This document shows positions 1,712-48,588 of a stretch of 64,000 nucleotides of DNA, piece after piece; within the stretch, counting starts at the first letter, position 1, and every line of letters starts with the position of its first letter. This stretch comes from Ostreococcus lucimarinus. Lineage: Eukaryota. The DNA lies in assembly GCA_000092065.1 (NCBI GenBank), contig CP000584.1. One strand, given 5' to 3'. The translations under genes and the position numbers were made by a program. A model generated the notes under the pieces. The model did no database searches. It had not been told where the DNA came from and saw nothing but the letters and a program-made list of their open reading frames with translations.

Positions 1712-4078
1712 CTATCGCGCGCCCGCGTACTCGTCGTCATCGTTGTCGTCGTCGTCGATATAATCGTCGTCGTCATCGTCGTCGTCGATGAATTTGTCGC
1801 GAATGCGCATCGAGCCGCCGCGCAAATCTGAAGACACTTCGTCGACGGGCTCTCGCGCGTCGTCGTCGTCGTCGTCGTCATCGTCGTCGTCGTCGTCGCC
1901 GTCCAAGTCTTCGTTCGCGAGAGGTAGGACATCATCAGAGAAGAGCTCATCTTCGTCATCATCGTAATCATCGGTGTCAGCGTCACTCACCAACCGAGCC
2001 TCCAAGCGCTTCGTGTACTCGATATTCGTGCCGGCGTCGTCTACGCCCGCTTCGAGCATGTCAATTTCGTACTGCGTGAGATCTCGCTTTCCCCCCGCGG
2101 TTGCCCTGTTGATCATCTCTTCGATCTCTTTCTTACTGAGTTTTTTATCTTCGTCGTCGTCTTTGAATCGCGGCACAACCTTGCGTCCGGCGTCGAGGCA
2201 CGCCTCCTCCCACGTTTCCCCGGCGTACACGTTGATGGGCGAGCCAAACGGATGCGGGTGGCGACCGAGCATCAGCAATAAGTCTTGCCTCGTGGGCATG
2301 ACTTCCAATGGGTACCTAAACCTCCACCATTTGCTTCGAGTATCGGTGACTTTGACTTCAAGCTCGGTGCCGACAGTGATGTGGTCGCGCATGGTCATCC
2401 AATCCGTCTCGTTGATTGGCAGCAACGCGTCGATTTCGGTGCCGCAGTCCACTAAAGCGCCGTGATATAAATCCATCGCGACGACCTTACCCTTCAACAC
2501 TTGATCAAGTTCAATCGTGTGGTGCATCTGTCGCGATACATCTCCAAAGTGTCTCGTGGGATCTCGGTCAACCGAGTCCACGTCCGTTTCTCGCGCTTCG
2601 GCCAAATGTCTCGTGTTCAGCGCGCGTTCGCGCATCCACGTGTTTTGTCCGCTCTCTATTTCTTCGTTTTGTACGCCGACGTAGGAAAGCGATGCGCCAT
2701 CGAACGCGCTCACGGCTTCATGCTGCGGCAGCGCGTCCCAGCCACCGTCACTCAACCATTCATCGTCGTCAAAGTCGTCCTCTGCGTCGTGACGCGATAC
2801 GAGTCGCCAATTTCCGTCGCCTTGCGCTCGTCTGGGATTGATTAAGAATGGAGCCTCTGGCGAGCCATCTTGATGAATTCGGTTGAGTTGAGATTCATCC
2901 AAGCCTTCATCTTCCTCATCTTTCTTGTCTTGGGCGGTCTCCATGCGTTCTTGCGCCTCTTCCTCTTCGAGCGCTTCGTCGAGGCGCTCCATCGCGAGCG
3001 TCAGCGGCTCCTCGTCCATATCCATCTCGCTCATTAAATCCCCTTCATCGTAGAAGATGTCTTCCTCGATGAAGTGCGTCGCGCTTCTTTCCGCGAAATC
3101 TTCCGCGACGAGCTCATCGATCTTGCTCTGTTTCCTCGCGCAATCGACTTCGTATCGCGCTTGCTCGGCGACGGTCATGTTGTTAAACTCTTCGCAACGC
3201 TCGTCGTACCACGCCACGATGTGTTCCTCGTCGACATCCGTGCGTTCGCTCAACTCGGCGATCTCTTTTCGCGTCGGTGGGTACGTTTGCATGTTTTTCA
3301 CTCGCAGCCACCAGTTAAGTTGACAGACATAAAGCGCCCGCCCCCGCAAAGCGCCCGCCTCGTCGGTGAAGTGTCGCGACGCCGACTTTGGCACCTCGCG
3401 CTTGATGTTTTCGTCACCCAATTCCTTCTTTTCGCGTGCGATGTGATCGATGACCCCGAAATCGTCGTCATCATCATCGTCGTCGTCGTAATCGTCGTAA
3501 TCGAGCAACAAATCGTCGTCGTCGTCGTCGTCAAACAACGACGCGACTTCGTCCGCGTCCCGGACGAACCCCGCCCCCGCGTCGTCGTCGTCGTACATCG
3601 ACCTCGCGAACCCTCCCGCGAGGACGTCCTCCTCCTCGTCCTCCTCCTCATCCTCATCCTCGTCATCGTCGTCCGCATCGCGCGCGTCCTCGTCTTCGTC
3701 GTAAAATCCCTCCGACCCGTCCTCCTCGTCCTCCGCGTCGTCGTCGTCGCCCGCGTCGTCGCCGCGCGTCGCCGCCGTCGTCACCTCCCGCGCCTCTCGC
3801 CCGCGCCTCGTCGTCCTCGCGCCGACGCGCATCGCGCGCGCGCGCATCACCGGCGTCTCCATCGTCGTCGCGCGCTCGCGCGCCATCGCGCCGCCGTCGT
3901 CGCGCGTCGCGCGCGCGTCCGCCGCCGCCGCCGCGAACCCGTCCCGTCGCGAATCCATCGCGTCGCGTCGCGTCGTCGCGCGTCGTCGTCGCGCCGGCGC
4001 GCGCCCAGACGCCGCGCGGGCATCGCGCCGCGCCGTCGCGACGCGCGCGGGCGCGCGCGCCGTCGCGCGCGCGCGCAT
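1712..4078 (-). CDS. S1 RNA-binding-domain protein with Asp/Glu-rich tracts and an R/A-rich presequence (possibly pTAC10/PAP3-like plastid protein)
   Basis: Part of ORF 1712..4129; the first ATG is at 4078. The S1-like segment is KGKVVAMDLYHGALVDCGTEIDALLPINE. Long poly-D/E runs are encoded by GTC/GAC triplet repeats. Codon usage is typical of neighbouring genes. Any pTAC10 identity is a guess. Confidence 0.55.
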   Translation of the reverse strand: MRARATARAPARVATARRDARAASGRAPARRRRATTRRDAMDSRRDGFAAAAADARATRDDGGAMARERATTMETPVMRARAMRVGARTTRRGREAREVTTAATRGDDAGDDDDAEDEEDGSEGFYDEDEDARDADDDDEDEDEEEDEEEDVLAGGFARSMYDDDDAGAGFVRDADEVASLFDDDDDDDLLLDYDDYDDDDDDDDDFGVIDHIAREKKELGDENIKREVPKSASRHFTDEAGALRGRALYVCQLNWWLRVKNMQTYPPTRKEIAELSERTDVDEEHIVAWYDERCEEFNNMTVAEQARYEVDCARKQSKIDELVAEDFAERSATHFIEEDIFYDEGDLMSEMDMDEEPLTLAMERLDEALEEEEAQERMETAQDKKDEEDEGLDESQLNRIHQDGSPEAPFLINPRRAQGDGNWRLVSRHDAEDDFDDDEWLSDGGWDALPQHEAVSAFDGASLSYVGVQNEEIESGQNTWMRERALNTRHLAEARETDVDSVDRDPTRHFGDVSRQMHHTIELDQVLKGKVVAMDLYHGALVDCGTEIDALLPINETDWMTMRDHITVGTELEVKVTDTRSKWWRFRYPLEVMPTRQDLLLMLGRHPHPFGSPINVYAGETWEEACLDAGRKVVPRFKDDDEDKKLSKKEIEEMINRATAGGKRDLTQYEIDMLEAGVDDAGTNIEYTKRLEARLVSDADTDDYDDDEDELFSDDVLPLANEDLDGDDDDDDDDDDDDDAREPVDEVSSDLRGGSMRIRDKFIDDDDDDDDYIDDDDNDDDEYAGAR

Positions 4079-4260
4079 GCCGACGCGTCGCGGTGTGACG
4101 CCGCCGCGGTTAGGGTTCGGCGTCCACACGTTTATCGCGACGGGTCGTTATTTTTACATCGTCCAAACGTGCGCTCGAATGCGGCGCGAGACGCCGACCG
4201 GGGAATGGCGATCGGCGCGGATTCGCGCGCGCCGCACACGCGCGCGCGTCCGAGATCGAC

Positions 4261-33778: not shown

Positions 33779-34423
33779 ATGGACGCGGTCGACGGTGACG
33801 CCGCGCGCGCCGTCCGCGGCGCGCGATTGCCCGAGCGCGCGCGCGTGACGCGCGCGAACGCCGAACGGTTGGGGACGGAGCAACAGTTTTGGTGCACGAC
33901 AAAGTGTTTCGTGCGCGACGTGCTCGAGGCGCGAGAGATCGCGATCGTGGACGACGCGAGCGATGGGGGCGAAGGCGTGGACGATGGACGGGCGAGCGAG
34001 CTGTACGAGATGCGAGGACGGGCGAGCGAGGGCGAGGGGGACGGGACGAAGGCGAGCGAGACGAAGGCGAGCTTCGTCGCGCGGCGGGTCGAAGTGTGTG
34101 GATTCGTGGTGGAGAAACGACGAAGGAAGGATTCGAAGGTGATATTTACCGTGGATGATGGGTCGGGGTGCGTGGAGTGCGTGGTGTGGACGCAAGATGG
34201 TGACGCGGTGTCGGGCGAGCAGATGGAGTTGTTCGGCATCGCGAGCACGGCGGACGGAGCGGCGGCGGTGGCGCGGGACATACGGGTCGGGAGCCTGGCT
34301 CGAGTGCAAGGGCGGATACGAGACTGGAACGGGCGTCGTCAAATCAACGCGACCGCGGTGCAAGTCGATCTCGATCCGAACGAGGAATTACTCTTCTGGC
34401 TCGACGCGTCACTCGAAATCTAG
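33779..34423 (+). CDS. STN1: CST complex subunit STN1, short plant-type OB-fold protein
   Basis: VEVCGFVVEKRRRKDSKVIFTVDDGSGCVECVVWTQD ... SLARVQGRIRDWNGRRQINATAVQVDLDPNEELLFWLD aligns by eye with plant STN1 (VDDGTGCVTCVMW ... ARVRGRV...ERDPNAEILHWLE). The first ATG in ORF 33656..34423 is at 33779. Confidence 0.75.
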   Translation: MDAVDGDAARAVRGARLPERARVTRANAERLGTEQQFWCTTKCFVRDVLEAREIAIVDDASDGGEGVDDGRASELYEMRGRASEGEGDGTKASETKASFVARRVEVCGFVVEKRRRKDSKVIFTVDDGSGCVECVVWTQDGDAVSGEQMELFGIASTADGAAAVARDIRVGSLARVQGRIRDWNGRRQINATAVQVDLDPNEELLFWLDASLEI

Positions 34424-34540
34424 TTAGTAAGAGTTTGGATTTACCTTATTGCACCAAAACTGCGAGCAAAGTCTAAGTCTCTAGTGATAGGATTCTAGTA
34501 TTTTAGCTAATTGTTGTGGTGATGTAGCCCATATCAGCGA

Positions 34541-37500
34541 TTACTCTGGTTTGAGACTCTCTGGGGAGGAGCCATTGTCTTCGTCGCTGCCAGCTCTAGC
34601 CTCTGCCCTTGACCGTCTTCGGAACACTCCTTGAGCAGACGAAAGCCAGCCAGTTAAAATACTCGCCGACGCCGTGCTGAGTGTTTTTGGACGTCTCGTA
34701 TCGAATGCCAACTCCGGATCGTCCGATGACTCAAGATCGGAAGAGCTACCAGAGTCGGAAGTGAGCGCTTGGCGTTTTGGGCCTCCGGACAGCGGCGTAT
34801 TCGCGAGGCTCATTTCCTTTTCTGCGCGCGAGCGTTGCAACCATTGACTCATCACCGAAGCAGCCACGTAAGAAACTGGTTGGCGTTCTGGTGAGGCGGA
34901 ATCACTGGACAACTGAGAAGACGAATCACCGGAATCATCCGAAAGATTCGCTTTCGGTGCAGACGGAGGCACGCTTGCGCGCATCTCTCTCGCTCTCGTC
35001 AACCAGTCTCGCATGACCATCTTTGAAGTTTGACTCATGTGCTCAGTCGTGGCGTACTTGGGTTCTGTATCAGTGTCACTTTCCGACGAGAAGTCAGTCG
35101 AAGAGAACACAGCAGTATTCGTGAGCGACGATTGTCTGTTTGCACGAAGTTGCTTAACCGCAGCCAACCAACCCGTAAGGGCGGCAGAAGAAGCTTCGGA
35201 AAGATTGACAGGCGGGAACCGTTGGAGACCAGCCTCTGTCTCACTTTCAGACGTATCAGAGAGCATGCGGAGATTTACTCCGCGTCCAGATGCTCTCGAA
35301 GCGGCGTGTGTGAGCCATATTCGCATGGCTGCTTCAGCACCCACTGATAGCTTCACTTCTCCGAAGTCTTCTTCCATATCCGAGTCTGACTCTGACATCT
35401 CACCAGCCTTCATTCTACGACGCACAGCTTTTCCGAGTTTCAGCCGCCTTGCAGTACGAGGAGATAGAATTTCTTGTAACTGATCAATGACCCAGTCCCT
35501 ATTCTTTGACATGAAAAGATGGCGGAACTGATCACTCGTGAGGTCGGCCGTCGTGACATCCATCGTTTGGAGGCTGTCGCCACCGCTATCCTCAATCACG
35601 GCTGCCATTTTAGGTACGAAAATGGAAGAAAAATCCTCATCAAGAGAATCCTCGATGATGATTTCCCCAGACGTGATCGAAGAAGTGATTCGCCAGAGGC
35701 CGAAGTGATTTGCCAAGAGGAGGGCGAGACGCTTTGCCGTGTAAGATGCGCCGAGAACCATGAGAACACAAGCCCAGAAGAGGATATCTTCAAACATGTT
35801 GTAGTTTGCTCGGAGCATCATGGAGAGAGCGAGGACGAACAAGAAAGATCCCGAGCCGCCGAGCGCAAGCACAAAGTAGAACTGACTCGAGAAGCACATT
35901 TGATCAATCGCGCGAAGACCGGGGTCAATTGATTCATCGTAAACGCGTTCGAAACCTTTCCATCGCGACGTACGATTGATGAATCGATATCGAGCGTACT
36001 TCAAATACTCGTACACCTTCCAGCCATGGAACAATTCCTGAATGTTGAAAGTTATGATGTCCATGACAATCCAGAACGGAATAATCACGACAGAGAAGAG
36101 AAGATAAATCAAAAGATCCTTCTTTCTGAAACCGTACAGGTACGACAGTCTCAGCTGGTCGTTGAAATCCCAGAAAAAGAAAATGAAGAAAGGCGTCATG
36201 TAGTTAACAGCCGTGTTTACGCCGTAAGCGGCGAGGAAGCCCATTAAATCTTCGACCAACGTATCTTCTGCATCGATTTTTTCCTCTACTTCGACGTCAT
36301 CGTCGTCACCAAAGTTAAATGGTAACAAATTCATGATGTAGTTCACGACTGCGCTGATTTTGTCTGGGAGTACGAGGGCGCAGTACGCGATGAACGCATC
36401 AAGATATACGTACTCGACCATACCCATGATAGTCTCGAAAAAGAAACCAAGGGTGAAATCTGTAAAGTCATCGGCTCCGATCGTCGCAACGCCAACGGCT
36501 GAAGCAAGTACGACCGATACTGGAGCGAGTAAGAAAGCTTCTCCCAACGCGGTTTCTATCTGCATTTCCATGATTACGTGAGCGACCTTCAAGAGGAAGA
36601 AAATGGTAAAGAACTGGACACCGAACGTATCAGTAAACGAGAACTCAATCAAGAAGACATTTGTCACGTTAACTAAGATATTCATCAAAACGAAATGACT
36701 TCGTTTCCAGACTTCTGGTTTGAACATCACTTCATCGACGTAGCGCTCGTCCTCCAATTCCTTCTCTTCTTCGTCTTTCAGTTCGGCAGGGACTAAGATT
36801 TCGGCGGCGCATCCCATCATATACATACCAGCTGTCAAAAAGCAGACTGCGTATCGACCAGCGGTCGCTTTTTCTACGACAGCTGGATCGATTTCACGGC
36901 CGATATTATCAATACTGATCGGGAACTCTGTAATGATTGGGAACGCGACAAACACGGCCCGGAGTCCGAACTGCGCTGTCGCAAACGGTAACATGCCGAG
37001 CGTGACACCCATCAGAGGTGGACCAATCATTATTCGAAGATATGGTAAGAATCGGAATCTCGGTGGTTCTTTCAATAGTGTGAAGATTCTCACGACCACC
37101 CACACAGAAAAGATCAACAACACGACGAGCATTCCGATCGCAAAGAAAAGCGCCAAGTAGAACAGGAAATCAAAAGCAAAGAAATTGAGCAAATCGAACC
37201 AACCTAGCGCTGATACCGCCACGCTAAGCGTGTAAGTACCATCGTGAGCCGTAGCGGATACGTATTCGTCCATCGTCACCGTGGCCGCGATGATTCGTTT
37301 GTCTGAGTCGGTGAATTGATAGTACAAGATCTCAAATTCAACCTTCGTCGGCATCAAACCAGCCGTCAAAACGAATCCTTCGACGGGCGCAAAAATCACA
37401 GGAATATTTTCTTGCGCCGTGATATCGGCCATGTACTTCTCTTTATTTGCGGCTGGCTCCGTCTGGTCGTTCGCCAGGGCGCTTGCTTCGAAAAGAGCGT

Positions 37501-40500
37501 CTTGACTTTCAGCCTCCGCTGTCAAGTAGAACAAGGTGTCACCCTCAGCTTCGTACCAACGCTTCTTTGCTGAAGCTTCTGTGTAGGCCTCTTCATAGAA
37601 ACAATCGATGGTTAACTCGAGCTCATCTGCAACTGCTGCTTGAACTTGCGGAGAGTATTGATTGATGAAGACTGTTTCTTCTTTTGGCACCAACGTGGTC
37701 TCACCATAACTGACAAACGTGCGATCTTCGCCAAACGTGACGGGCTTGTACGGGTTTTCAGTGAGGTGCGAAAAGAAAATATGACTGTCGAATCCGCGGC
37801 AAGCAGAAAAGAAAGGCAAGTAGTCCATCGCGAACAGCGTCTGGTCAGCCGCCCACAAACCTTCATTGAGCAGATACTTTTCTTGCTCGTACACGTCTGG
37901 AAGTGAAAGAGTGATAGTTTCGTCGGTTTGGCCATCCTCGTTCACTATCACCCAATCCTCTGCTTGCGTCGACGTTAAATCAATGTGCGCTTGGCTGGGA
38001 GAATCTTCGGCTGTTAGCACGTTTTGCTGTCGCAGATATTTGAACTTCTTCCACTCCGCACCATACGTAGAGTTGTAATCGATGGCGGCACGGGCATCAA
38101 GCCTTCTACAACCAGGATCTTGGTTAATATTGGCGCACTCGAAGTAATCGGTCGACACTGATCGATACATTGTCGAGGCCACAGGAGCATTCAAGGGCGC
38201 TTGATACTCTTCGTCAATTTCGAATGGCAAAATGGCGTGCACGGAATACGTCGGCGTTGCACTTGCACGCTCTGGAAATTCGACGTCGATGCAAATACTG
38301 TTCAAGAACGACGCACGATTATCCTCTTGATATCTACCATCCAGCATTCTCAGTTCAATTCTGAAAGGCAAATCATCCAAAGCTTGAATGGATAGTTCGT
38401 GCATACCGCGTTTCCAAACGTAGTTCCCAAAAGTTGGATTCTCAACGTTGTAGCCCGTCGCAGTACCATCGCTATTTCTCGCAAACCAGAACGGCAACTC
38501 TAAAGATTCTTGAGAAGCGGGACACTTCTTTTCCTGCTCCTCACCGGCTATGACCTTCATATTCAGCCATGTTATGCCATCGCCTACATCCCATGGCGGG
38601 CATGGCACGGACTTGTATTCGCTTGCAGGGCACAAGGTGTCATCAATCACTGGATTTGTGAAAATAAGCAGCTCGTAATGTTCGCCGTACTTCAGATTTT
38701 CGTTGATTGTCCGCCAATCAAGCCTCAATTTGGCCGTATGACCTCGAGGTAGAGTGAACTTCATCAAAGGGATATTGTTCTCGTCAACGGCGGCGATGCT
38801 GTTGTCATCTGACAGAATGAATGTCGGGTTCAGGAGTTCCCAATTTTTGTTTGTGCAACTGCCCATGCCCATGTAGTCAAATGGGTCGGTGGGTCCTGTC
38901 GCGTTTGAACTAGAAGTGTTCGTCGTATCGATCTGCAATAGAGTGCGACCTGCAGCGATTTGGCTCTCTACTTCCCGAAGCCATTCAGTGTCACGACCTG
39001 TGGCGTTGATTGTTTTGTAATATGTTTTCTCAATCAAGTCAAAACTGACGGGCATGACTCTCCAGAAAGTGATCAAATCTGCAGAGCACTCGTCCAAACT
39101 TTGTGCCGACGGAGACGACGCCGTCCCTGTGGGACATCGGTTGAGCACTTGTCCAGTTCCCGTCGGACAGAAGAAGCAAGCTTGACACGGGAACTGAGTA
39201 CGCGTAGAGTAAGACGCTCCAGCGGGACAGTAGTAACCAGCGGGACATTTGTTGAAAAATTGTGTTTCCGGAGTAGTACCCGGTCCACAGAAGTATCCGT
39301 CGGGGCACTTTTGTTCGGCAATCGATGTTCGAGCGTCGCACACGTAACCCTCCGGACACAAATCCGCTTCACCTTCTGGATCGAGTTGTAAAAGAACACA
39401 CTTGGAGGCGTCGTAAGCCTCGGTGTTGTCCGCATCGCAATAAGCAGAGTACTCGTTTAACGCAGCTGTACCTTGCCCACGAGGTTTGTTATTGCTCATG
39501 CCATCAATGGCGCACACAAGTCCTGAGTTACACGGCAAACATAACGATTCTTCGGTCAAGCCAATAGATGACGACCAGGTTCCTTTCGGACACTGACGGC
39601 ACGCAATGGAGTCCCGCGCAGAGCGGAAATAACCTGCAGGACATGCGGTTGGTTTGAATGTGCCTTCGTCGACGCACTCGTAGCCTGCAGCGCATGTTAG
39701 ACACTCCTGGAACCCTTCGTAAGGCGTATAGGTGCCCGGAAGACATGTAACGGCTGCGGAGTTACCTTGTCCAGATGTGTATGAACCGCGCGGCGCTGGA
39801 ATCGGAATGTAAGTACGTTTCGGACAGTAATGACCCTCGGTACAAGGTCTCATTGGATTATATACATCCGTCGCCGATTCAGAAACCACAGTGGAATCCC
39901 CTGTAGCCCATTCGCAGAAACTTCCTTCCTTACACGGCTGCGGTTGCTTGAAAGAACCCTCCAACACGATCGAAGTTGTTACACCCTCCGTACAGAACGT
40001 CGTGGGAGGACACGGCTTTGGTCGGAAGTTGTCAACGTTCAACGCAATTGGAGATGCATCGACAATAGCTGCCACATCAATAATTGCGAGAGGATCACGG
40101 GTGACGGTATTTTCAAGGCAGTAATGTCCGGCGGGACAACGGGTACCTGCGACGGCCAGACCTTCAGTGTCGCACACGAAGCCGGGTGTGCACACTTCGG
40201 GCGCCTCACGAGCAAAACCTGGGCAAATCGTGCCTTTTGGACATTTTTGACATGAGTCTTTGCCATAATCGGAGTTGTACTCGCCGGGAAGACATGGTTT
40301 CGGTTCGGCGTTGGCGACACCTGGACAATACATTCGCTTTGGGCATCTCAACTGCTGACCAGGAGGACAGTAATGTCCTGGAGGACACGGACCTACGCCT
40401 TGCGGTGTGATAGAACCAGGTTCACAAACATAACCGGCATAGCACTGCTGTGGAGTGGTGAAATTGTATGCGATACTCGCACTCGACACAACACCGGCGG

Positions 40501-43500
40501 TACAGTACATGCCAAATGGACAAGGTAGTGGCCGCTCGGCAACAGTGAAGTCAGTAAAGTTACTCGTTCGCGTACCCTCCAAACAATAATGGCCGGGTGG
40601 ACATAGTTTATTCGGTACAGTAAGGCCAGTAGAGTCACATACCGCACCCCTCGGACAAATGATCGGGATCATTGAGCCCGCGTCTGGCGAAATGTAGCCC
40701 ACTGGCGTTGGAAGACAGTCAGCTTGGCCGGTTCTGGGTTGGAACGTCCCTGGCGGGCATAAGGTGAAATTTTTTCCACCGCCACAGAATGCGCCTCGTG
40801 GACATAAAATGGCTTCACTTTCAGGGCAGTACGATCCAGACGGACATTGTGCGAAATGGAACAGCAGTCGCTGTTCTGAAAAGTCGACTCCATTTGTGGA
40901 GACTTCGACGAACACTGTACGAGTGCCACTTTGCTCCACGCCCGCAACACAAAGAATAGATCTGGATGACAAGAAAGTTGCTGTCGCAAGCTCTTGTCCA
41001 AATCGACACGTTAAACTGGAAGTATTGACAAAATTTGAACCAGTTATGAAAATGGGGCTTCGACTACCGCTCAGACCAACTTTCGGAATGATACCAGAAA
41101 TTTTTGGTGGAACTTGGTAGACAAACGTTGCCGTGTTGATGGTCGAAAGATCACGATCGTTCCCAGAAATGCTAATATCTGCAATTCCTAATCCTCGTGC
41201 CGGCGTGATGCACGTAAGGACGTCGCTTTGAGTGTTGTATGACGTAATTGGAAAGAAGGTGCCGATGCGGCAACTGTAACGCGCGCCATCGGTCAGGCCA
41301 TTCACAGACACCGAGAGCGTGGTTCCACCGTTCTCCGATCCTGTCTCGGGAGACACAGCGGAAATCATCAAATCGTCAATGTACTCGAACGCGGTACCGT
41401 AACTTGAAATAAAACCCGGATCGTCACGAGGAGCCATTCCAATGCCCACTCGGCGCTCAGTAGACCAAGGTGGAGTGATGCAAAGTCCAAGCGCAGACGA
41501 CACCACGTGCGCGCTTGTTTGCTCGTTGCCAAAGTAACAATAGCCAGACTCGTGCAGATTATCTCCGTCGACATGGAGTACGGTTGTTCCGCTAGCCGTA
41601 CCAATACTAGGGTGAACATTGAGAACGACAGGTGGCATGAAAACTTCAAATCCAATCGGTGTTGCAGCGTCGGGCAAAACCATGATTTCAAGAACAGTAA
41701 AACCGAATCCAGAAGGCGGCGTGTCGCAAGTGATCGTTCGCTGATCTTCAAACGTCGCCTGCGCGACCTGTCCATGTAGTTTGCAGCCTAGGTACGCGCC
41801 GTGTGGCAAGTATATTGCACTGTTGGACATCAACTTCAACGTTGTGTCTCCGGCCGCAACGCTCCTCTTCGGCGAGACAAAAGATGGGACGAGTGGAGTG
41901 AAATATTCAAAGCTACCAACCGATGCGTAATCCTTTGAGTTGTACGTCAAAGAGCCAACAACCACAGTACCATTGAGCCCAGCAGGAGAGATGCAAGTGA
42001 CAGACGTCGACGAACGCTGTTCCGAGGTGCTGATTGGACCTATAGTGCCAAACCGACAGAAGATTTCTTGTTCGGTGGCGTCTTCCGCTAAGTTTCCAAT
42101 ATGAAAAGTGAACAGATTGCCTCCGTTTTCCGACAGATATGGGTTTTCCAGACTCTGACTAAGAAAGTCGAAGTCATCCAAATATTGGAACGCCGCAACT
42201 ATCTCGGAAATATAATTTTCATCATCTCGGGGACTGACGCCAAGCGAAACCATGGGCGAATTCCCACTGAGGACAGGAGAAGTACACACACTGAGAGCGG
42301 ACGAAATGGCGTACGCTGTGGTGTTTTGATCACCGAAATGACAGAAACTTGACTCGTGCAAGTGTTCTCCGGCAACGTGGATCACGGAGGATCCACTGTA
42401 GAACCCGACCGACGGAACCATGCTTGTGACAACAGGCGGCACAAAGATGTCAAAGTCTACCCCGACGCCGTCGAGACCTATGGTAGATAACTCCACAAAT
42501 CCCGCCGAAAGAATCGGAACGGGGCAGCTGAGCGTGTATCTTACACAGTCTCTTTGATTACCGCCGGAACACGTAGATGTCCGAACAGCCTGTGACGATA
42601 GAACGGGAAATAACCCAAACATGCATCCCTTTGGCGTCGAGCTCAAACTGTGCCCGGTGGCTTCAAGGACTACGTCAGCAAGGCCCTCGTTCGAAGCTCT
42701 CCCTGGCACGACATGCATGACCGTCATATCCTCCTCGGAATAAATCAAGACAAAATTGGTAAAGTAAGAAGACGTCAAGTGAGATGACAGCCAGACCCGG
42801 ATGGCATCGGGCGACGTCGGTGAGTGCGCCGGAGTCACGAATTCAAAGCTACTTCCCGAGCTTCGCACATACATCGGGCCGATTGAGCCCACGTGTCCAG
42901 CGGGCGCATCCACCAGTTCTTCAAGTATTCCGACAGAAGTTAGCGAGGAAATTTGTATCGTGTCACCTCCAGAGGTTGCCACCGTTTCCGCGGAGATATC
43001 CAGAAGAGTCGGAGCGGGAATGTAACTGATGGACGTTGTACCCATTTCGTCGTAGTTCAAGCTTCCACCAGTATCGACGTATAACGCAATTCTTCCTTGG
43101 TTATTGGAGAAGTACGGTGACTCGCACGTCACCAAGGTCGACGAATGAACTTTTGCGGGCACATTTACGTCGCCAAAGTAGCACTGCACTGACCCACCAG
43201 CCACATCGAGCAAATCTTCACCACTGATAGTGACTAATTCACCACCAGAATTACTGATCAAAGTTGGGTATGCTGACACTAGAATCGGATCAGGTTGGAA
43301 TAAGAACAACGAATCGGTTTCATCTTTCCCAGGTGAGGCACCTAAACTTATTTGAGCGAACCCTGGGGCGTACGCGGGCATGATACACTCAGATACATAA
43401 GGATTCGTGGAGATGGACGTGGCTGAGACGAAAAATCCAGCGACGTGACACTTAATAGAAGTTTCCATTGGGTTTTCATGGAGAATACGAACAGCAACGC

Positions 43501-46500
43501 CTCCACTCACGGATCCGAATGACGGATACACCGCCGAGGAAGACACTTCGACGGTTTCGTGATAGCTGAAAGGTTGTTTCACCGACGTGAACATCTCACC
43601 GAATAAACGAGCATACATGGGAATGGTACCCGCGATGTGCGCGGGAACTCGACATTCTAGACCATTCCCGGTCAGTTGTCCGATGATGGGACCAAGACTT
43701 CCGAATTTGCAAGCACAATTGTCAAATGATTGCTGATACGGATCAACTTTGTAGTAAATTATCGCAATAGACCCTCCATCTTCGTTACTTTCTTGAGGCG
43801 ACACGTGTAAAGGATTATCTTCCTCCTTGATGTACTCAAAGACAATACCAGAGGACTCAAATTCATCGTCCGTGAGGCTTGTTGAACCACTTGACAGAAA
43901 ACTGAGAACTGCAGAGCCAGCATCATTCGCTGGTTGCTCGATCACAACTAGAGCACTTGACACAAACTGTACCGGAGAGAATTTGGTGCTTCCAAAAACA
44001 AACTTGTTGTGCGTGACTTCGTTGAAGTGAACGCCAGTCAATTTTATTATTTCTCCTCCAGCTTCTGCGCCATCATACGGCTGCAAATTAGTAATCTGCG
44101 CATGAGGTTCATAACTGAGCTGTATTTGCGAAGAATCCCACACGCTCACGTCGTGAATTTGCACCCCAACAGCGACAAAACCGGAGCTGTGCGCTGGAGC
44201 GAGACACAAAACGAGACCGTTTGACTCCACTTTTGCAACTGCCGCGTGAAGATCGAACACGCAAGCGACTGGTAAGGTCGCTAGCGAAGAAGGCAATGTG
44301 CTCGGTGAAATCATAAGCTCCACCAAAGATCCCCCATCTAACGATACCGACGTGCGGTATGGCTCAGTGAGATCTATGTTGGCAATGTATTCGTACAGAA
44401 GTGTCGTCGCCGCATTGTCACGCTCATTCATAGCCACAGTCACTGGAACTGTCGCAGGTGAATGGGCAGGCAGGATACATTCAACTTTTTCGGATGAACC
44501 CTGCGTAAGGGAAATTCCAGAGATCGTACCAACTTTGCATGATATTACGCTCAAATCCGTGGAAAAGTCTCCATAGATGTCAACCACAGCACCGCCGGCT
44601 TCCAATCCTCGCGCAGCTGGGTGATCTATTTCGAGTCCAGGAAGAAGAATGAAAGTTATTTGGAAATCCGCACTTTGTTCCACGTCGTTGTATACAAGTT
44701 GTAAAGCAGTGTCATCCTTGCCTTCGGGCGTCACACACACGACGAGCGCCGAAGAAATTACGTGTATAGATGACTTTGCAGTACCTGCACTTGTCGTGTA
44801 ACCGCACGAAGCACTGTAATTCGTACCGCCCCAGATCATATTGGATCCCGTCACATATACCAAACTTCCCCCAATCGTTGGGAATGTGAGTGGAGTCGCT
44901 CTCATGAGTTTCGGTTTGGCAACATAATGGAACTCGAGAGCTGACGACGTAAAATCTTGCAAGTTCATAGAGACATCGATCACCGTGAATCCAGATTTAG
45001 ACGCCGGAGCATTGCAAACAGTATTTGATCCGAAGATGAATGCATTCGTAGTGGTTGAACCAAACCTACACGAAAGATGACTTCCGTAGAAGTTTTCACC
45101 GAACAAAGTCACCGAGGTGCCGCCGGTAACAAAACTCGATTCTGGTATTGTCATTGATGACAACGTCGCGATCACCTTGTACTCAAATGTAGCCGCCGAT
45201 TGACTCAGCTTAATTTCAAACGCAGTATTGTGATGGAACACGTTGACTGGGACTGAACCTGCGCTGTGCGCAGGAGAGACGCAAGACGCCGCATTCATGG
45301 ACAACCATCGTCCAAGAACATTCGAAATGGTTCCAATCCTGAAAGCCAGTGAAACGTCGTTTCGAAACGCCAGGCCATCAAATGAAAGAATAGTACCACC
45401 TTGAGACGGCCCAGTCTTGGGAACTACCCGATGTATGACCGAGGAAGATGTGTTCATGAACTCAAACGGTAAGCCTGGAACCGACCAATCAAAGGCATTG
45501 TTTGAGACTGCAAGGTCATGGTATCCGACCTCCATGCTCGGAGATTCGCACATCACTTGCGAGGGTGAAATAAACGCTGCACGGAATGGAGCTAATGTAC
45601 CGAATCGACACAAAGAAGAGGGAGAAAAGTGATCACCATACACCACGATGGCTGTCCCACCGATGGACGGGCCAGACAGCGGAAGCAAGTGATCCAGCAA
45701 CACCTTCCTCGTTAAAATATCATTTGCATCGGTACTGGAGACGATGTTATTGCCGGAGCTATCGACAATTCTTATATCGTACTCGTTTACGCCGTTGTTA
45801 TCTTCGGGTAACCCACAGAGAACAGAACCATCGCTGAGGACGATGCCTGGGACCAAGGCGTCACCATTTCCAAGATTGCAATACACATCTTGACCAGGAA
45901 CAAATCCCGTACCAGTCACAGTTGCGGTATTATTATCGTTGTTTATAATTGTGGTCACTGACGCTTCAGTAGTATACAAGAAAGTCACCTGCGGACCATC
46001 AGCAAACATGGCGCCGAACTCGCTGACCATGCCGATGTCAAAATTCACCCAACCCTCTACGTGCGCAGGCGCTAGGCACCTATATTCATCTGCAGCGATC
46101 CATTCGCCCACGACAGGACCAATTGAGCCAAACTTACACGCGAGATCGTGTGAATCACTGAAAGAGTGCCCGGCAGCTGTGACTGTGGTACCGCCCTCGA
46201 CTAAACCCATTGATGGTGATAGAGCCGTGACCACTGGAGGTGGATCAAACAAAAATTGCGGCTTCATCGCTAATTCTACTGCGGTTGCTACTACCGATAC
46301 GTCCAGTGCATATGCACCTTCAAACATGCTAGGCGTTTCGCAAATCATCAACGCCGAGGAAACATGTGTTGCCGCTACGGTAGTCGTACCAAACCTACAG
46401 ACAGGATTGTCTTGCAGCAAATGCTCCCCTTCTATGTGGACTAATGTTCCACCTCCTATGGCACCAACTCTGGGCGCTATTCTAGTAATTTCAATCACGT

Positions 46501-47659
46501 CCTTTAATTCAAGCTGCACACTGTCTGATGCAAAGACGGAATATTGGAAATCTTGACCGTTCGAGGCCACCGCAACGGAGACAAAACCGATTCCAGCTGG
46601 AGCTACGCAGGTCACAGCGTTGGTTCCCGCGAGACCTGGAACTTTATGCGAGCCAAATTTACACGCAAGCTCTGGTGTTTGCACGACACTCTGTACCGTG
46701 ATAGACACATGGGAAGATCCTGCCGAAGAGACCTGGAACGGCGCGATTGCATCGACAACGAGACTCGATAGAAAAGTGAACGAGTTTGAGAATGTCACAT
46801 AGTCTCGATGATTCATCGAGACGCTCAGGGGCTTAGCCGCTAAAGAAGATGCAGGCGTCGCGCACTCCAATGTATTTTCATTCTGGTAAATCGCGGAGAC
46901 CTCAATTGCTCCGAAGCGACACCGCAACAAACTTGTCGGCGCAAAATTTTGTCCCGTCAGCGTCACCAACGTGCCCCCTTCGCCAGTACCGACTGCTGGA
47001 CTGACGCGACTTATCGACGGCGCGCCGATATAAATGTGCTGGACGCTACTGAAAGCCTCGAAAAAGTTTGAGGAAGTCAAAGACACGTCCACAGCGACGG
47101 TTCCCTTGTCGATCGAAGGTGATTCACACTTCATCAAACCAGACGAGACGATGTGCCCAGTAGTCGTGAGGTCGCCAAATCGACAGTACTGCGACACGTG
47201 CATATCAGCACCGAATACGTCTACGATACCTCCTGAAATACCATACACAGAGTTCACGGCGTCCACCTTGGCGCCACTCACAAATTGATATCCTTTTGTT
47301 CTCAAAAAGTCTCCCGTTTCATTGTTGAGCGCGAATTCGACGTTTACGAAACCCTCCGTGTGTGACGGTGCTGTGCATTTGACCGTCTCGGCGTCTACGT
47401 AATACGCCCGAACGAACTCATTATCAAACTTGCACGTGAGCTCTGCCCCTGGTATATTCTGAACCGCTGCCAGCTGCTTACTCGAGAGCGTGACGACTTC
47501 GCCGCCGCCCACGTGTCCCGCGCTCGGATACATCCATTCCACCTCTGGAATCTCAAATCCTCGAGCGCCGCACGCGAAGCACGCCGCCACCGTGATTAGG
47601 AATAAAACCAACCAAATCGCACGCGATGGACGAAACGACCTCATATCGCTCGTCCTCAT
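34541..47659 (-). CDS. Giant 4372-aa receptor-like membrane protein, single 13.1-kb exon: signal peptide; about 20-24 IPT/TIG-like repeats; ephrin-receptor/furin-like Cys-rich repeats; unknown ectodomain; about 11-TM domain; Ser/Asp-rich cytoplasmic tail with WLxxAR repeats
   Basis: Uninterrupted ORF 34541..47659. N-terminus: MRTSDMRSFRPSRAIWLVLFLITVAACFACGARG. There are more than 17 clearly readable repeats with the pattern C[RK]FG-x(15-20)-C-x-[AST]P, for example CRFGDLTTTGHIVSSGLMKCESPS and CKFGSHKVPGLAGTNAVTCVAPA. Cys repeats occupy about nt 39070-40850 (CQKCPKGTICPG, CPAGYFRSARDSIACRQCPKGTWSS, CPAGYYCPAG). Hydrophobic helices occupy about nt 35690-37210. The tail is at 34544-35690. Confidence 0.8.
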   Translation of the reverse strand: MRTSDMRSFRPSRAIWLVLFLITVAACFACGARGFEIPEVEWMYPSAGHVGGGEVVTLSSKQLAAVQNIPGAELTCKFDNEFVRAYYVDAETVKCTAPSHTEGFVNVEFALNNETGDFLRTKGYQFVSGAKVDAVNSVYGISGGIVDVFGADMHVSQYCRFGDLTTTGHIVSSGLMKCESPSIDKGTVAVDVSLTSSNFFEAFSSVQHIYIGAPSISRVSPAVGTGEGGTLVTLTGQNFAPTSLLRCRFGAIEVSAIYQNENTLECATPASSLAAKPLSVSMNHRDYVTFSNSFTFLSSLVVDAIAPFQVSSAGSSHVSITVQSVVQTPELACKFGSHKVPGLAGTNAVTCVAPAGIGFVSVAVASNGQDFQYSVFASDSVQLELKDVIEITRIAPRVGAIGGGTLVHIEGEHLLQDNPVCRFGTTTVAATHVSSALMICETPSMFEGAYALDVSVVATAVELAMKPQFLFDPPPVVTALSPSMGLVEGGTTVTAAGHSFSDSHDLACKFGSIGPVVGEWIAADEYRCLAPAHVEGWVNFDIGMVSEFGAMFADGPQVTFLYTTEASVTTIINNDNNTATVTGTGFVPGQDVYCNLGNGDALVPGIVLSDGSVLCGLPEDNNGVNEYDIRIVDSSGNNIVSSTDANDILTRKVLLDHLLPLSGPSIGGTAIVVYGDHFSPSSLCRFGTLAPFRAAFISPSQVMCESPSMEVGYHDLAVSNNAFDWSVPGLPFEFMNTSSSVIHRVVPKTGPSQGGTILSFDGLAFRNDVSLAFRIGTISNVLGRWLSMNAASCVSPAHSAGSVPVNVFHHNTAFEIKLSQSAATFEYKVIATLSSMTIPESSFVTGGTSVTLFGENFYGSHLSCRFGSTTTNAFIFGSNTVCNAPASKSGFTVIDVSMNLQDFTSSALEFHYVAKPKLMRATPLTFPTIGGSLVYVTGSNMIWGGTNYSASCGYTTSAGTAKSSIHVISSALVVCVTPEGKDDTALQLVYNDVEQSADFQITFILLPGLEIDHPAARGLEAGGAVVDIYGDFSTDLSVISCKVGTISGISLTQGSSEKVECILPAHSPATVPVTVAMNERDNAATTLLYEYIANIDLTEPYRTSVSLDGGSLVELMISPSTLPSSLATLPVACVFDLHAAVAKVESNGLVLCLAPAHSSGFVAVGVQIHDVSVWDSSQIQLSYEPHAQITNLQPYDGAEAGGEIIKLTGVHFNEVTHNKFVFGSTKFSPVQFVSSALVVIEQPANDAGSAVLSFLSSGSTSLTDDEFESSGIVFEYIKEEDNPLHVSPQESNEDGGSIAIIYYKVDPYQQSFDNCACKFGSLGPIIGQLTGNGLECRVPAHIAGTIPMYARLFGEMFTSVKQPFSYHETVEVSSSAVYPSFGSVSGGVAVRILHENPMETSIKCHVAGFFVSATSISTNPYVSECIMPAYAPGFAQISLGASPGKDETDSLFLFQPDPILVSAYPTLISNSGGELVTISGEDLLDVAGGSVQCYFGDVNVPAKVHSSTLVTCESPYFSNNQGRIALYVDTGGSLNYDEMGTTSISYIPAPTLLDISAETVATSGGDTIQISSLTSVGILEELVDAPAGHVGSIGPMYVRSSGSSFEFVTPAHSPTSPDAIRVWLSSHLTSSYFTNFVLIYSEEDMTVMHVVPGRASNEGLADVVLEATGHSLSSTPKGCMFGLFPVLSSQAVRTSTCSGGNQRDCVRYTLSCPVPILSAGFVELSTIGLDGVGVDFDIFVPPVVTSMVPSVGFYSGSSVIHVAGEHLHESSFCHFGDQNTTAYAISSALSVCTSPVLSGNSPMVSLGVSPRDDENYISEIVAAFQYLDDFDFLSQSLENPYLSENGGNLFTFHIGNLAEDATEQEIFCRFGTIGPISTSEQRSSTSVTCISPAGLNGTVVVGSLTYNSKDYASVGSFEYFTPLVPSFVSPKRSVAAGDTTLKLMSNSAIYLPHGAYLGCKLHGQVAQATFEDQRTITCDTPPSGFGFTVLEIMVLPDAATPIGFEVFMPPVVLNVHPSIGTASGTTVLHVDGDNLHESGYCYFGNEQTSAHVVSSALGLCITPPWSTERRVGIGMAPRDDPGFISSYGTAFEYIDDLMISAVSPETGSENGGTTLSVSVNGLTDGARYSCRIGTFFPITSYNTQSDVLTCITPARGLGIADISISGNDRDLSTINTATFVYQVPPKISGIIPKVGLSGSRSPIFITGSNFVNTSSLTCRFGQELATATFLSSRSILCVAGVEQSGTRTVFVEVSTNGVDFSEQRLLFHFAQCPSGSYCPESEAILCPRGAFCGGGKNFTLCPPGTFQPRTGQADCLPTPVGYISPDAGSMIPIICPRGAVCDSTGLTVPNKLCPPGHYCLEGTRTSNFTDFTVAERPLPCPFGMYCTAGVVSSASIAYNFTTPQQCYAGYVCEPGSITPQGVGPCPPGHYCPPGQQLRCPKRMYCPGVANAEPKPCLPGEYNSDYGKDSCQKCPKGTICPGFAREAPEVCTPGFVCDTEGLAVAGTRCPAGHYCLENTVTRDPLAIIDVAAIVDASPIALNVDNFRPKPCPPTTFCTEGVTTSIVLEGSFKQPQPCKEGSFCEWATGDSTVVSESATDVYNPMRPCTEGHYCPKRTYIPIPAPRGSYTSGQGNSAAVTCLPGTYTPYEGFQECLTCAAGYECVDEGTFKPTACPAGYFRSARDSIACRQCPKGTWSSSIGLTEESLCLPCNSGLVCAIDGMSNNKPRGQGTAALNEYSAYCDADNTEAYDASKCVLLQLDPEGEADLCPEGYVCDARTSIAEQKCPDGYFCGPGTTPETQFFNKCPAGYYCPAGASYSTRTQFPCQACFFCPTGTGQVLNRCPTGTASSPSAQSLDECSADLITFWRVMPVSFDLIEKTYYKTINATGRDTEWLREVESQIAAGRTLLQIDTTNTSSSNATGPTDPFDYMGMGSCTNKNWELLNPTFILSDDNSIAAVDENNIPLMKFTLPRGHTAKLRLDWRTINENLKYGEHYELLIFTNPVIDDTLCPASEYKSVPCPPWDVGDGITWLNMKVIAGEEQEKKCPASQESLELPFWFARNSDGTATGYNVENPTFGNYVWKRGMHELSIQALDDLPFRIELRMLDGRYQEDNRASFLNSICIDVEFPERASATPTYSVHAILPFEIDEEYQAPLNAPVASTMYRSVSTDYFECANINQDPGCRRLDARAAIDYNSTYGAEWKKFKYLRQQNVLTAEDSPSQAHIDLTSTQAEDWVIVNEDGQTDETITLSLPDVYEQEKYLLNEGLWAADQTLFAMDYLPFFSACRGFDSHIFFSHLTENPYKPVTFGEDRTFVSYGETTLVPKEETVFINQYSPQVQAAVADELELTIDCFYEEAYTEASAKKRWYEAEGDTLFYLTAEAESQDALFEASALANDQTEPAANKEKYMADITAQENIPVIFAPVEGFVLTAGLMPTKVEFEILYYQFTDSDKRIIAATVTMDEYVSATAHDGTYTLSVAVSALGWFDLLNFFAFDFLFYLALFFAIGMLVVLLIFSVWVVVRIFTLLKEPPRFRFLPYLRIMIGPPLMGVTLGMLPFATAQFGLRAVFVAFPIITEFPISIDNIGREIDPAVVEKATAGRYAVCFLTAGMYMMGCAAEILVPAELKDEEEKELEDERYVDEVMFKPEVWKRSHFVLMNILVNVTNVFLIEFSFTDTFGVQFFTIFFLLKVAHVIMEMQIETALGEAFLLAPVSVVLASAVGVATIGADDFTDFTLGFFFETIMGMVEYVYLDAFIAYCALVLPDKISAVVNYIMNLLPFNFGDDDDVEVEEKIDAEDTLVEDLMGFLAAYGVNTAVNYMTPFFIFFFWDFNDQLRLSYLYGFRKKDLLIYLLFSVVIIPFWIVMDIITFNIQELFHGWKVYEYLKYARYRFINRTSRWKGFERVYDESIDPGLRAIDQMCFSSQFYFVLALGGSGSFLFVLALSMMLRANYNMFEDILFWACVLMVLGASYTAKRLALLLANHFGLWRITSSITSGEIIIEDSLDEDFSSIFVPKMAAVIEDSGGDSLQTMDVTTADLTSDQFRHLFMSKNRDWVIDQLQEILSPRTARRLKLGKAVRRRMKAGEMSESDSDMEEDFGEVKLSVGAEAAMRIWLTHAASRASGRGVNLRMLSDTSESETEAGLQRFPPVNLSEASSAALTGWLAAVKQLRANRQSSLTNTAVFSSTDFSSESDTDTEPKYATTEHMSQTSKMVMRDWLTRAREMRASVPPSAPKANLSDDSGDSSSQLSSDSASPERQPVSYVAASVMSQWLQRSRAEKEMSLANTPLSGGPKRQALTSDSGSSSDLESSDDPELAFDTRRPKTLSTASASILTGWLSSAQGVFRRRSRAEARAGSDEDNGSSPESLKPE

Positions 47660-48588
47660 CCCGCGCGTCGTCGTCGTCCCGCTCGCGTCGCGTTCAAACC
47701 TTCTCCACCCTCGCCATCGACCGCGCGCGCGCCTCTTTCCCCATCGTCTCCGTCCAGTTCGACGTCTACGTCCTATTTCTCGCCGCCCTCAACGCGTCGA
47801 GCCGATCACCGCTGAATTCTTCGCGCACGTCCCGTCCCGTCGCGCGCACGAATTTGAACGATGCCGCCCCGATGTCCACGACGTATTTTCGTCCGCGTCC
47901 GTCCGCGCGTCCGACGCGCGCGATCGACGTCGCCCGCGCGCGTTCGATCGTCGTCGCGTCGATCGACGGATTCGTCGCGTTCGCACGCGCTCTACCGCGC
48001 GCTCTGCCGCGCGCGTCCCCCGCGCGTCCGACGCCGCGTCAATCCGCGGACCGCGGCCAAAACGGCCGAGTCACTGGCGCGCAGTCAGACGCACGATTTC
48101 CCAATCGAACCGTTTGAAGGCGCTTTTCCTCACCGAATACGACGATGGATCTTCCCTTGAGTCGAGATCGATAAGGGAAAAAAGCGCGCGGTGGTTGGTC
48201 CGTGTGCGACGTGCGCGAGGAAGACTCGCCTCGCGCGCCTCGTCGCGCGTCGCCGCGACGCCGTCCGTCTTTCACACGCGCGCGGAGTAGAGGTGCGGCG
48301 CGAACGATGCGAGCGCGCGGAACGAATGCACGACGCGGTGACCATCGATGCATCGGCGCGCGCGCGCGGACGGCGCGTCGATCGCGCGTGCAGCGCGCGC
48401 GAACCGAGCGCGCGCGATTAGGGTCACGGTGCAGCGCGATGTCGTCGACTGCGTGCGGGCGCGCGCGCGGGCGCGAGCGCGGGTGGTGCAGACGACGACG
48501 GCGCTGGGTGAAAAGTATTTCGTTCGCGCGGCGCGATCGGTGACTGACGACGTGTGAACGCGTGAAAACGCGTGTTTCGCGAGCAGCC
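47660..48588. promoter_or_regulatory. CpG-rich 930-bp divergent intergenic region between the giant gene and RPL32 (the largest noncoding stretch in the window)
   Basis: There is no credible coding frame; only Arg-rich ORFs on both strands. It is flanked by ATG 47659 (minus) and ATG 48589 (plus). Confidence 0.4.

Follow-up and report, generated by a model that had tools for sequence, protein, structure and literature searches.

A tryptophan-helix unit repeated in the predicted cytoplasmic tail of a giant membrane protein of Ostreococcus lucimarinus

What is the tryptophan-containing motif that recurs in the tail of a giant protein of the green alga Ostreococcus lucimarinus, and what could it do there? 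The window analysed here is a 64,000-nucleotide stretch of contig CP000584.1 (assembly GCA_000092065.1), and the gene in question is a single unbroken open reading frame (ORF) of 4,372 codons at 34541..47659 on the minus strand. Its product ends in a C-terminal tail of 385 amino acids (aa), which directly follows TM11, the last of eleven predicted transmembrane (TM) helices. A sequence-only reading of the window had reported five copies of a Trp-Leu motif of about 14 residues in this tail, each followed by an acidic linker, and had proposed that they are repeated docking sites. All five WL-type strings are present in the translation of the ORF, as is the acidic linker SDSGSSSDLESSDD quoted with them. 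The five canonical tryptophans are W4115, W4164, W4219, W4273 and W4338, with codons at 35315-7, 35168-70, 35003-5, 34841-3 and 34646-8, respectively. The span first given for the repeat, 34650-35420, lies in the tail, but the fifth Trp codon and the rest of that helix fall just outside it.

Serine makes up 17% of the tail, alanine 10%, and leucine and arginine 8% each, and the likeness of the copies might come from nothing more than the compositional bias of a Ser/Ala/Arg-rich disordered segment, the motif having no function. Shuffle tests of three kinds reject this. At least five WL dipeptides occurred in 6 of 100,000 composition-preserving shuffles of the tail. In the self-alignment that the sequence-only reading had called for, carried out as an ungapped self-comparison, the similarity exceeded composition: the top off-diagonal pair of 14-mers, LSEASSAALTGWLA and LSTASASILTGWLS, scored 47 against a shuffle maximum of 38, and the ten best pairs summed to 319 against 222.8 +/- 12.4, neither value being reached in 300 shuffles. 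A hidden Markov model (HMM) built only from the units of distant orthologues, with the window protein and its close relatives left out, picked exactly the five canonical sites in the window tail, for a total of 50.3 bits, whereas the maximum over 1,000 shuffled tails was 8.3 bits; among the other 3,990 residues of the giant protein this HMM had no match. All six tryptophans of the tail past the TM11 boundary fall within the motif. Since the copies are, in addition, singly conserved in orthologues down to 22-30% identity and into a different supergroup, compositional chance is considered ruled out as an explanation, with practically no probability left to it. Tandem and direct DNA repeat searches across the tail found nothing corresponding to the units, so the copies must be ancient and have diverged. 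The coding sequence does hold, at the TM11/tail boundary (35682-35720), a tandem near-duplication of 20 nt (1.9 copies, 89% match), which is probably a chance similarity since its period is not a multiple of three.

The anatomy of the unit was determined from a logo of 271 non-redundant units (70% filter) aligned on the tryptophan, which is the anchor and thus 100% at position 0. The true unit is about 40 aa long, not 14, and also takes in an acidic cluster, an aromatic-Gly/Pro element at W-16 and a hydrophobic residue plus Ser at W-11/-10. It can be written as an [S/D/E] cluster followed by [FW]GPVxL[STN] and then xxS[RK]x[IL]ΦRxWLxxARxR. Positions -28 to -21 are D/E/S/T in about 50-75% of units. 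The central element consists of F/W at -16 (49%), G at -15 (41%), P at -14 (46%), V at -13 (56%; hydrophobic 85%), L at -11 (66%; hydrophobic 94%) and S/N/T at -10 (78%). In the helix there are S at -7 (60%), R/K at -6 (49%), I/L/V/M at -4 (hydrophobic 100%), a hydrophobic residue at -3 (99%), R/K at -2 (57%), L at +1 (75%), A at +4 (73%), R at +5 (78%) and R at +7 (49%); R/K is also found at +11 of the family consensus helix, which is strongly basic. Little information remains at the positions right after the helix. The logo therefore places an acidic Ser cluster in fixed register upstream of each helix, so that the acidic clusters noticed earlier are present, but each goes with the helix after it and not with the one before.

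On a helical wheel the conservation is one-sided, with a mean of 1.65 bits on the conserved half and 0.95 bits on the other. The centre of the conserved face is hydrophobic or small (L-11, S-7, I/L-4, the hydrophobic residue at -3, W0, L+1 and A+4) and its edges are basic (R-6, R-2, R+5 and R+7). The earlier description of the helix as amphipathic holds only moderately for the copies in the window, which are weakly to moderately so: their 18-residue hydrophobic moments are 0.05-0.40, where the tail averages 0.18 and has its 95th percentile at 0.36, and the peak moments of the tail, 0.40-0.43, are at units 3 and 5. The net charge of the window copies is 0 to +3. Along the tail, basic helices alternate with acidic clusters, and there are 20 [ST]xx[DE] sites against 13.6 +/- 3.0 in shuffles.

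Besides the five canonical copies, which were confirmed, there is a sixth copy, the variant RDWVIDQL, on the membrane side of the first. This juxtamembrane Trp helix, referred to here as copy 0 (DLTSDQFRHLFMSKNRDWVIDQLQEILSPRTA, W4056), sits between TM11 and unit 1 at residues 4036-4070 (TTADLTSDQFRHLFMSKNRDWVIDQLQEILSPRTA; 35450..35554, minus strand as for all features of the gene). It is predicted to be helical by AlphaFold2 (AF2) and is the best-conserved element of the tail, its identity to orthologues of 0.46-0.97 being above that of every other tail class; W4056 (W586 in query numbering) is invariant in a 20-sequence family alignment. Unit 1 (W4115; residues 4085-4124; 35288..35407) has the cluster SESDSDMEED, F4099-G at W-16 and a helix with AAMRIWLTHAASRAS. 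It scored 13.8 bits with the distant-orthologue HMM, and its AF2 helix spans 4106-4122; W645, L646 and A649 (query numbering) are invariant or nearly so across the family alignment. Unit 2 (W4164; residues 4134-4173; 35141..35260), with SDTSESETE, RFPPVNLS and the helix EASSAALTGWLAAVKQLRA, is the copy nearest to the consensus (26.2 bits; AF2 helix 4155-4180), and its tryptophan (W694, query numbering) is invariant family-wide. Unit 3 (W4219; residues 4189-4228; 34976..35095) has SSESDTDTE, Y4203 at W-16 and the helix SKMVMRDWLTRAREMRA (8.4 bits; AF2 helix 4210-4228), and its W749 (query numbering) is nearly invariant.

The aromatic residue at W-16 is retained in units 1-3 (F4099, F4148 and Y4203), and the last two units are degenerate there. 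Unit 4 (W4273; residues 4243-4282; 34814..34933) has SDDSGDSSSQLSSDS, a degenerate N-terminal part with Pro at W-16, and the helix SYVAASVMSQWLQRSRAEK (10.7 bits; AF2 helix 4264-4286). In unit 5 (W4338; residues 4308-4347; 34619..34738), which has SSSDLESSDD and the helix STASASILTGWLSSAQGVFR, the aromatic residue has moved to W-19; this is the weakest copy by HMM score (3.8 bits; AF2 helix 4329-4356), and it is the one that pairs with unit 2 in the self-comparison at a score of 47. The Trp-to-Trp spacings from copy 0 onward are 59, 49, 55, 54 and 65. The tail ends in a basic stretch and a last acidic/Ser cluster (residues 4348-4372, RRSRAEARAGSDEDNGSSPESLKPE; 34544..34618), and this end is conserved in the close relatives P0001 and P0003.

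Two AF2 models were made. The first, of the C-terminal 972 residues, was built on 9 sequences and had a predicted local distance difference test score (pLDDT) of 44, and it was used for secondary structure only. Its tail helices coincide with the five units, and the linkers are unstructured and of low confidence, which gives a predicted picture of isolated helices in a disordered Ser/Asp-rich segment. The second model (m1a7dd81c895d) covered the TM domain, copy 0 and unit 1 with a 22-sequence alignment. It reached a mean pLDDT of 71.6 and shows eleven long membrane helices, with values of 80-95 in the TM core. The values for copy 0 and unit 1 are 31-60, so that neither is confidently packed on the TM domain. 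Loops rich in K/R follow TM1 and TM9, on what is probably the inner side of the membrane. Together with a predicted signal peptide and the eleven TM helices, these loops would place the tail in the cytoplasm, in agreement with the location proposed for it at the outset.

The sequence-only reading had asked whether orthologues preserve the number and spacing of the repeats. They do. Orthologues, all of them marine metagenomic, came from word-indexed searches that used either the C-terminal 972 residues or alignments, and their identity was 40-96%. In 16 distinct lineages of the window's clade the tail consists of copy 0 and five units, with Trp-to-Trp spacings of about 57-64, 45-55, 47-58, 36-70 and 47-77. 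In distant orthologues the identity was 0.31-0.35 for unit cores, 0.33-0.46 for acidic clusters and 0.21-0.29 for the remaining linkers.

When 1.84 billion representative proteins were searched exhaustively with HMMER, a 39-position profile of the unit matched 122 of them at E <= 0.001, 27 at E <= 1e-10. Of these proteins 119 were examined. In 73 the TM domain or copy 0 is matched as well; the 46 without such a match are fragments of at most 531 aa in which the first unit starts within about 100 residues of the N-terminus. Every match long enough to show it has the same membrane domain, of about 600 aa, directly upstream of the units. With window residues 3471-4075 as query, jackhmmer matched the domain over its full length in more than 80 proteins (summed scores 400-830), and the family alignment has invariant columns. 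The cytosolic segments of the TM domain are very conserved, for example ELFHGWKVYEYxKYARYRF..RWKG. The unit is thus restricted to one family, that of giant proteins with TIG and Ephrin_rec_like domains, an 11-TM domain and a Trp-helix tail. Named members, annotated as 'hypothetical' or 'IPT/TIG domain-containing', are from the oomycetes Aphanomyces invadans (XP_008870714.1, 7,478 aa), Thraustotheca clavata and Pythium insidiosum, the diatom Odontella aurita and the pelagophyte Aureococcus anophagefferens. The two homologues that were scanned for domains, P0166 (Thraustotheca) and P0134, have a TIG and Ephrin_rec_like ectodomain as in the window protein.

Across the family the tail has an FRxxF..NRxW helix next to the membrane and, after it, three to five units of acidic cluster and Trp helix. 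The stramenopile-type tail, seen in more than 35 lineages, has only three units, spaced at about 65, 130 and 55. Between its units 1 and 2 there is a conserved CxxC…CxxC segment of about 80 residues (in P0013, P0109, P0116, P0126 and others; for example ECExCLSRxQLQVE…WKxFF…TLCxxC), which is absent from the five-copy clade of the window and which could be a zinc-binding module. Diatom-type members have an extra C-terminal coiled-coil extension of about 300 residues. Across both tail types, at 22-30% identity, the tryptophans of copy 0, unit 1 and unit 2 are invariant. A literature search on the family (TIG domain in Mamiellales or Phytophthora) found nothing relevant, and neither the motif nor the protein family seems to have been described before.

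Among the partners suggested beforehand for the docking sites were calmodulin and 14-3-3 proteins, and the window tail and six orthologues were searched with regular expressions for these and other known motifs. No 14-3-3 site of mode I (R[SFYW]x[ST]xP) or mode II (Rxxx[ST]xP) was found in any of the seven tails, and 14-3-3 binding is not supported. The same tails have no match to the IQ consensus [FILV]Qxxx[RK]Gxxx[RK], to the Sfi1 and XPC motifs [FWL]xxW[KR] and WxxLxxxL, or to the kinesin-light-chain W-acidic motif. The PP1 RVxF, acidic dileucine and YxxΦ motifs are missing from the window tail and occur once only in one or two orthologues; the calmodulin 1-8-14 pattern has no match in the window tail and few in the orthologues, where it is not consistently present. 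Nor does the unit fit the canonical calmodulin spacings. With W0 as the last anchor, the middle anchor of a 1-8-14 motif falls on position -6, which is R/K in the logo, and a 1-5-10 motif that begins with I/L-4 and W0 would have its third anchor on +5, again R/K. A loose '1-14' calmodulin pattern matches too often to be informative, and because of G-15/P-14 and the Ser N-cap at -10 the segment with its first anchor is not expected to be helical. A canonical calmodulin motif is consequently not supported. A profile search of the PDB with the unit gave nothing significant, the best matches being ribosomal protein uS7 (1x18_F, GGANYQVPMEVSRRQQSLALRWLVQAANQRPERRA) at E = 0.13 and a chain of 2l02 at E = 0.61. 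Both were taken as chance resemblances of pattern, in uS7 that of a strand followed by a Trp helix. That the unit itself might form a packed mini-fold of strand and Trp helix is a speculation.

What, then, might the units do? Our preferred explanation, which we hold tentatively, is that they serve as a series of helical sites on which a conserved protein of the cytosol docks, with phosphorylation of the acidic clusters probably adjusting the binding. Docking accounts best for the residue-specific and one-sided conservation, which includes small residues, for the invariant register, and for single conservation of the copies within a disordered tail. The tail would be an intrinsically disordered cytoplasmic platform of six modules, one juxtamembrane variant and five canonical copies, each with a CK2-type Ser/Asp/Glu cluster, a short extended [FW]-G-P-V-x-L element and an N-capped helix of about 18-25 residues in fixed register. 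Each helix would dock through its conserved face onto the cytosolic protein, and the giant receptor could in this way recruit several copies of the partner, or one multivalent assembly, under the membrane. The adjacent acidic cluster might tune docking, either by its phosphorylation or by pairing with the basic edge of the helix. The general idea of repeated docking sites put forward at first thus fits the predicted arrangement of isolated helices in a disordered Ser/Asp-rich tail, but the 14-3-3 and canonical calmodulin versions of it do not.

Several observations weigh against docking sites. No partner was found and no known motif class was matched, and the one-sided basic and hydrophobic face would also suit an acidic membrane or the protein's own cytosolic loops. 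The copies in the window are degenerate (HMM scores of 3.8-26.2 bits and moments down to 0.05), the margin of conservation of unit cores over linkers is small, and the enrichment of CK2 sites is modest, at about 2 SD. The AF2 confidence of the tail is also low (pLDDT 25-60), so that its helicity is a prediction.

The face just described could serve the membrane itself. Lying directly after TM11, the Trp helices might be in-plane anchors of the inner leaflet that bind acidic lipids and are released by phosphorylation of the Ser/Asp clusters, an electrostatic switch of the MARCKS type. The consensus helix, which is strongly basic (R/K at -6, -2, +5, +7 and +11) and has Trp and Leu in the middle of its face, would suit this role, as would the fixed register of the acidic Ser clusters and the location of the highest tail moments (0.40-0.43) at units 3 and 5. 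A membrane anchor would, however, be expected to conserve physico-chemical character, whereas the conservation here is residue-specific (A+4 73%, S-7 60%, S/N/T-10 78% and G-15/P-14), with small and polar residues in the middle of the face and a narrow hydrophobic strip. The moments of the window copies and their net charge of only 0 to +3 also speak against it, and it gives the conserved extended [FW]GPVxL no role. We regard such anchoring as unlikely. Another alternative is intramolecular: the helices would fold back onto conserved loops on the cytosolic side of the 11-TM domain, or would bind the acidic clusters, and so gate or auto-inhibit the membrane domain. This is in keeping with the occurrence of the unit only together with this TM domain, with the highly conserved cytosolic segments of the latter and with the alternation of basic helices and acidic clusters. 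Yet AF2 did not dock copy 0 and unit 1 confidently on a core that it modelled with confidence (31-60 against 80-95), and copy number differs between clades, five or three, over the same TM domain, which is hard to reconcile with fixed intramolecular sites. Fold-back is for these reasons held to be distinctly unlikely.

A more specific form of docking would have the units bind EF-hand proteins, calmodulin or centrin, as an Sfi1-like array with one Ca2+ sensor on each Trp helix. Short, basic, Trp-anchored helices in tandem are what such an array would look like, V-13 and W0 stand at a 1-14 spacing, and the neighbouring genes suggest a flagellate host; centrin is known from the flagellar basal apparatus. 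Against these points stand the missing IQ, Sfi1 and XPC motifs, the inner 1-8-14 and 1-5-10 anchors that land on conserved basic residues at -6 and +5, and the Gly-Pro and Ser N-cap that would keep the first '1-14' anchor segment from being helical. This makes EF-hand binding improbable.

The docking-site explanation can be extended. The module may be the cytoplasmic signalling or adaptor-recruitment code of an ancient and unrecognised family of giant 11-TM receptors, shared by stramenopiles and mamiellalean green algae, whose membrane domain has no detectable relative among solved structures and whose bipartite strand-plus-helix units bind a conserved effector in a phosphorylation-gated and multivalent manner. 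We consider this extension possible but doubtful. If true, the change from three copies with a CxxC…CxxC segment to five copies would mark a rewiring of output in the green lineage. We rate the repeat as a kind of tandem helical recognition motif in a disordered receptor tail, of sharp anatomy and wide phylogenetic reach. The giant surface protein is encoded by abundant marine picoalgae, diatoms, pelagophytes and oomycete pathogens alike, and the tail repeat offers a testable handle on it: its module, some 40 residues long, is resolved down to the single residue, and has natural three- and five-copy variants and an invariant Trp in every copy. To know what binds the module would show how a huge adhesive ectodomain and an unclassified 11-TM domain are coupled to the cytoplasm. 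Domain databases could take up both the motif and the TM domain, which would improve the annotation of many 'hypothetical' giant proteins in marine metagenomes.

The remainder of the giant protein begins with a signal-like hydrophobic segment at residues 14-32, seen by hydropathy at the N-terminus of the ORF. The ectodomain has an IPT/TIG array with at least 15 TIG stretches in Pfam (E = 2.9e-156), then a Cys-rich region (window about 39300-40900, minus strand) with weak to moderate Pfam matches to Ephrin_rec_like, and a long region without annotation between this and the membrane domain. The multi-pass membrane domain, with its 11 TM helices predicted by AF2 and hydropathy, occupies residues of about 3498-3986 (35702..37168). 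A Pfam scan of the TM region and tail found nothing, even at E <= 10, and an exact-sequence look-up with the whole 4,372-aa product returned no record. A weak lead for the TM domain points towards TMEM16-like proteins. In the Cys-rich ecto-region the family profile weakly matches the Chlamydomonas mastigoneme protein Mst1 (PDB 8tx1, E = 6e-4); this similarity is at the domain level only, as it runs through the Ephrin_rec_like repeats.

The G+C content of the giant gene (34001-48000) is 0.47-0.55 per 2 kb, while most of the surroundings are at about 0.60-0.68; other dips in the window are at 14-16 kb (0.55) and 50-52 kb (0.53). In an orthologous metagenomic locus on a Tara scaffold (L001, 1-12769) the TIG part has a G+C content of 0.65-0.68 and only the part encoding the TM domain and tail drops, to 0.57, so that the strong dip seems specific to the genome of the window. 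The gene at that locus was called as five consecutive pieces on the same strand (3028, 420, 134, 727 and 922 aa), where the window copy is one ORF, which suggests introns, frameshifts or splits made by the gene caller. The neighbouring genes in the window (9098-59686) are ordinary eukaryotic genes without obvious introns, encoding PIG-N, a TPR protein (with a weak TTC21-like match), a TMF-like golgin, a PP2A-A-like HEAT protein, a TPH-domain protein, Prp31 and an MFS sugar transporter. These surroundings are those of a compact genome with flagellum-associated domains, and they would suit a flagellate mamiellalean such as Micromonas.

How does the tail compare with systems that are known? The centrin-binding repeats of Sfi1, with the consensus AX7LLX3[F/L]X2W[K/R], each dock one copy of a small partner and, like the window tail, are tandem helical repeats centred on a Trp. 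The family unit differs in having Leu after the Trp and Arg at +5, in giving no [FWL]xxW[KR] match, and in adding a conserved [FW]GPVxL pre-segment to each helix. Whereas Sfi1 forms one continuous helix, the copies here are 45-70 residues apart, with disordered acidic linkers between them. The 1-14 motifs of the smMLCK M13 type and the MARCKS effector domain place a Trp or other bulky anchor in a short positive helix beside phosphorylatable residues, an arrangement that the unit resembles. Unlike them, it does not conserve the canonical anchor spacings, has moments of 0.05-0.40 in the window, and conserves small residues (A+4, S-7) and a Gly-Pro element. The tails of furin and CI-MPR carry acidic-cluster sorting motifs phosphorylated by CK2. 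The window tail resembles them in its Ser/Asp/Glu clusters, which contain [ST]xx[DE] sites, and in being the predicted cytosolic end of a large surface receptor. In the window, however, the cluster is repeated six times and fixed 21-28 residues upstream of a Trp helix, and it is not accompanied by a dileucine or YxxΦ signal.

At the level of the whole protein, the alveolate CRMPs (cysteine repeat modular proteins; PMC9670195) are likewise of giant size, cross the membrane several times, and combine a Cys-rich adhesive ectodomain with a C-terminus in the cytosol. The giant protein resembles them in architecture, an analogy only, made against their published description; their domains are of the Kringle, MAR and EGFR types (PMC9670195), in place of the TIG array found here. 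The unit profile had no match from a source named as an alveolate, most matches being without a named source. Receptors of the plexin, MET and PKHD1 type share the serial IPT/TIG ectodomain, and a PDB profile comparison matched plexin-A at E = 1.5e-16. These receptors are single-pass proteins with GAP, kinase or short tails, whereas the giant protein joins its ectodomain to an 11-TM domain and a tail of Trp helices.

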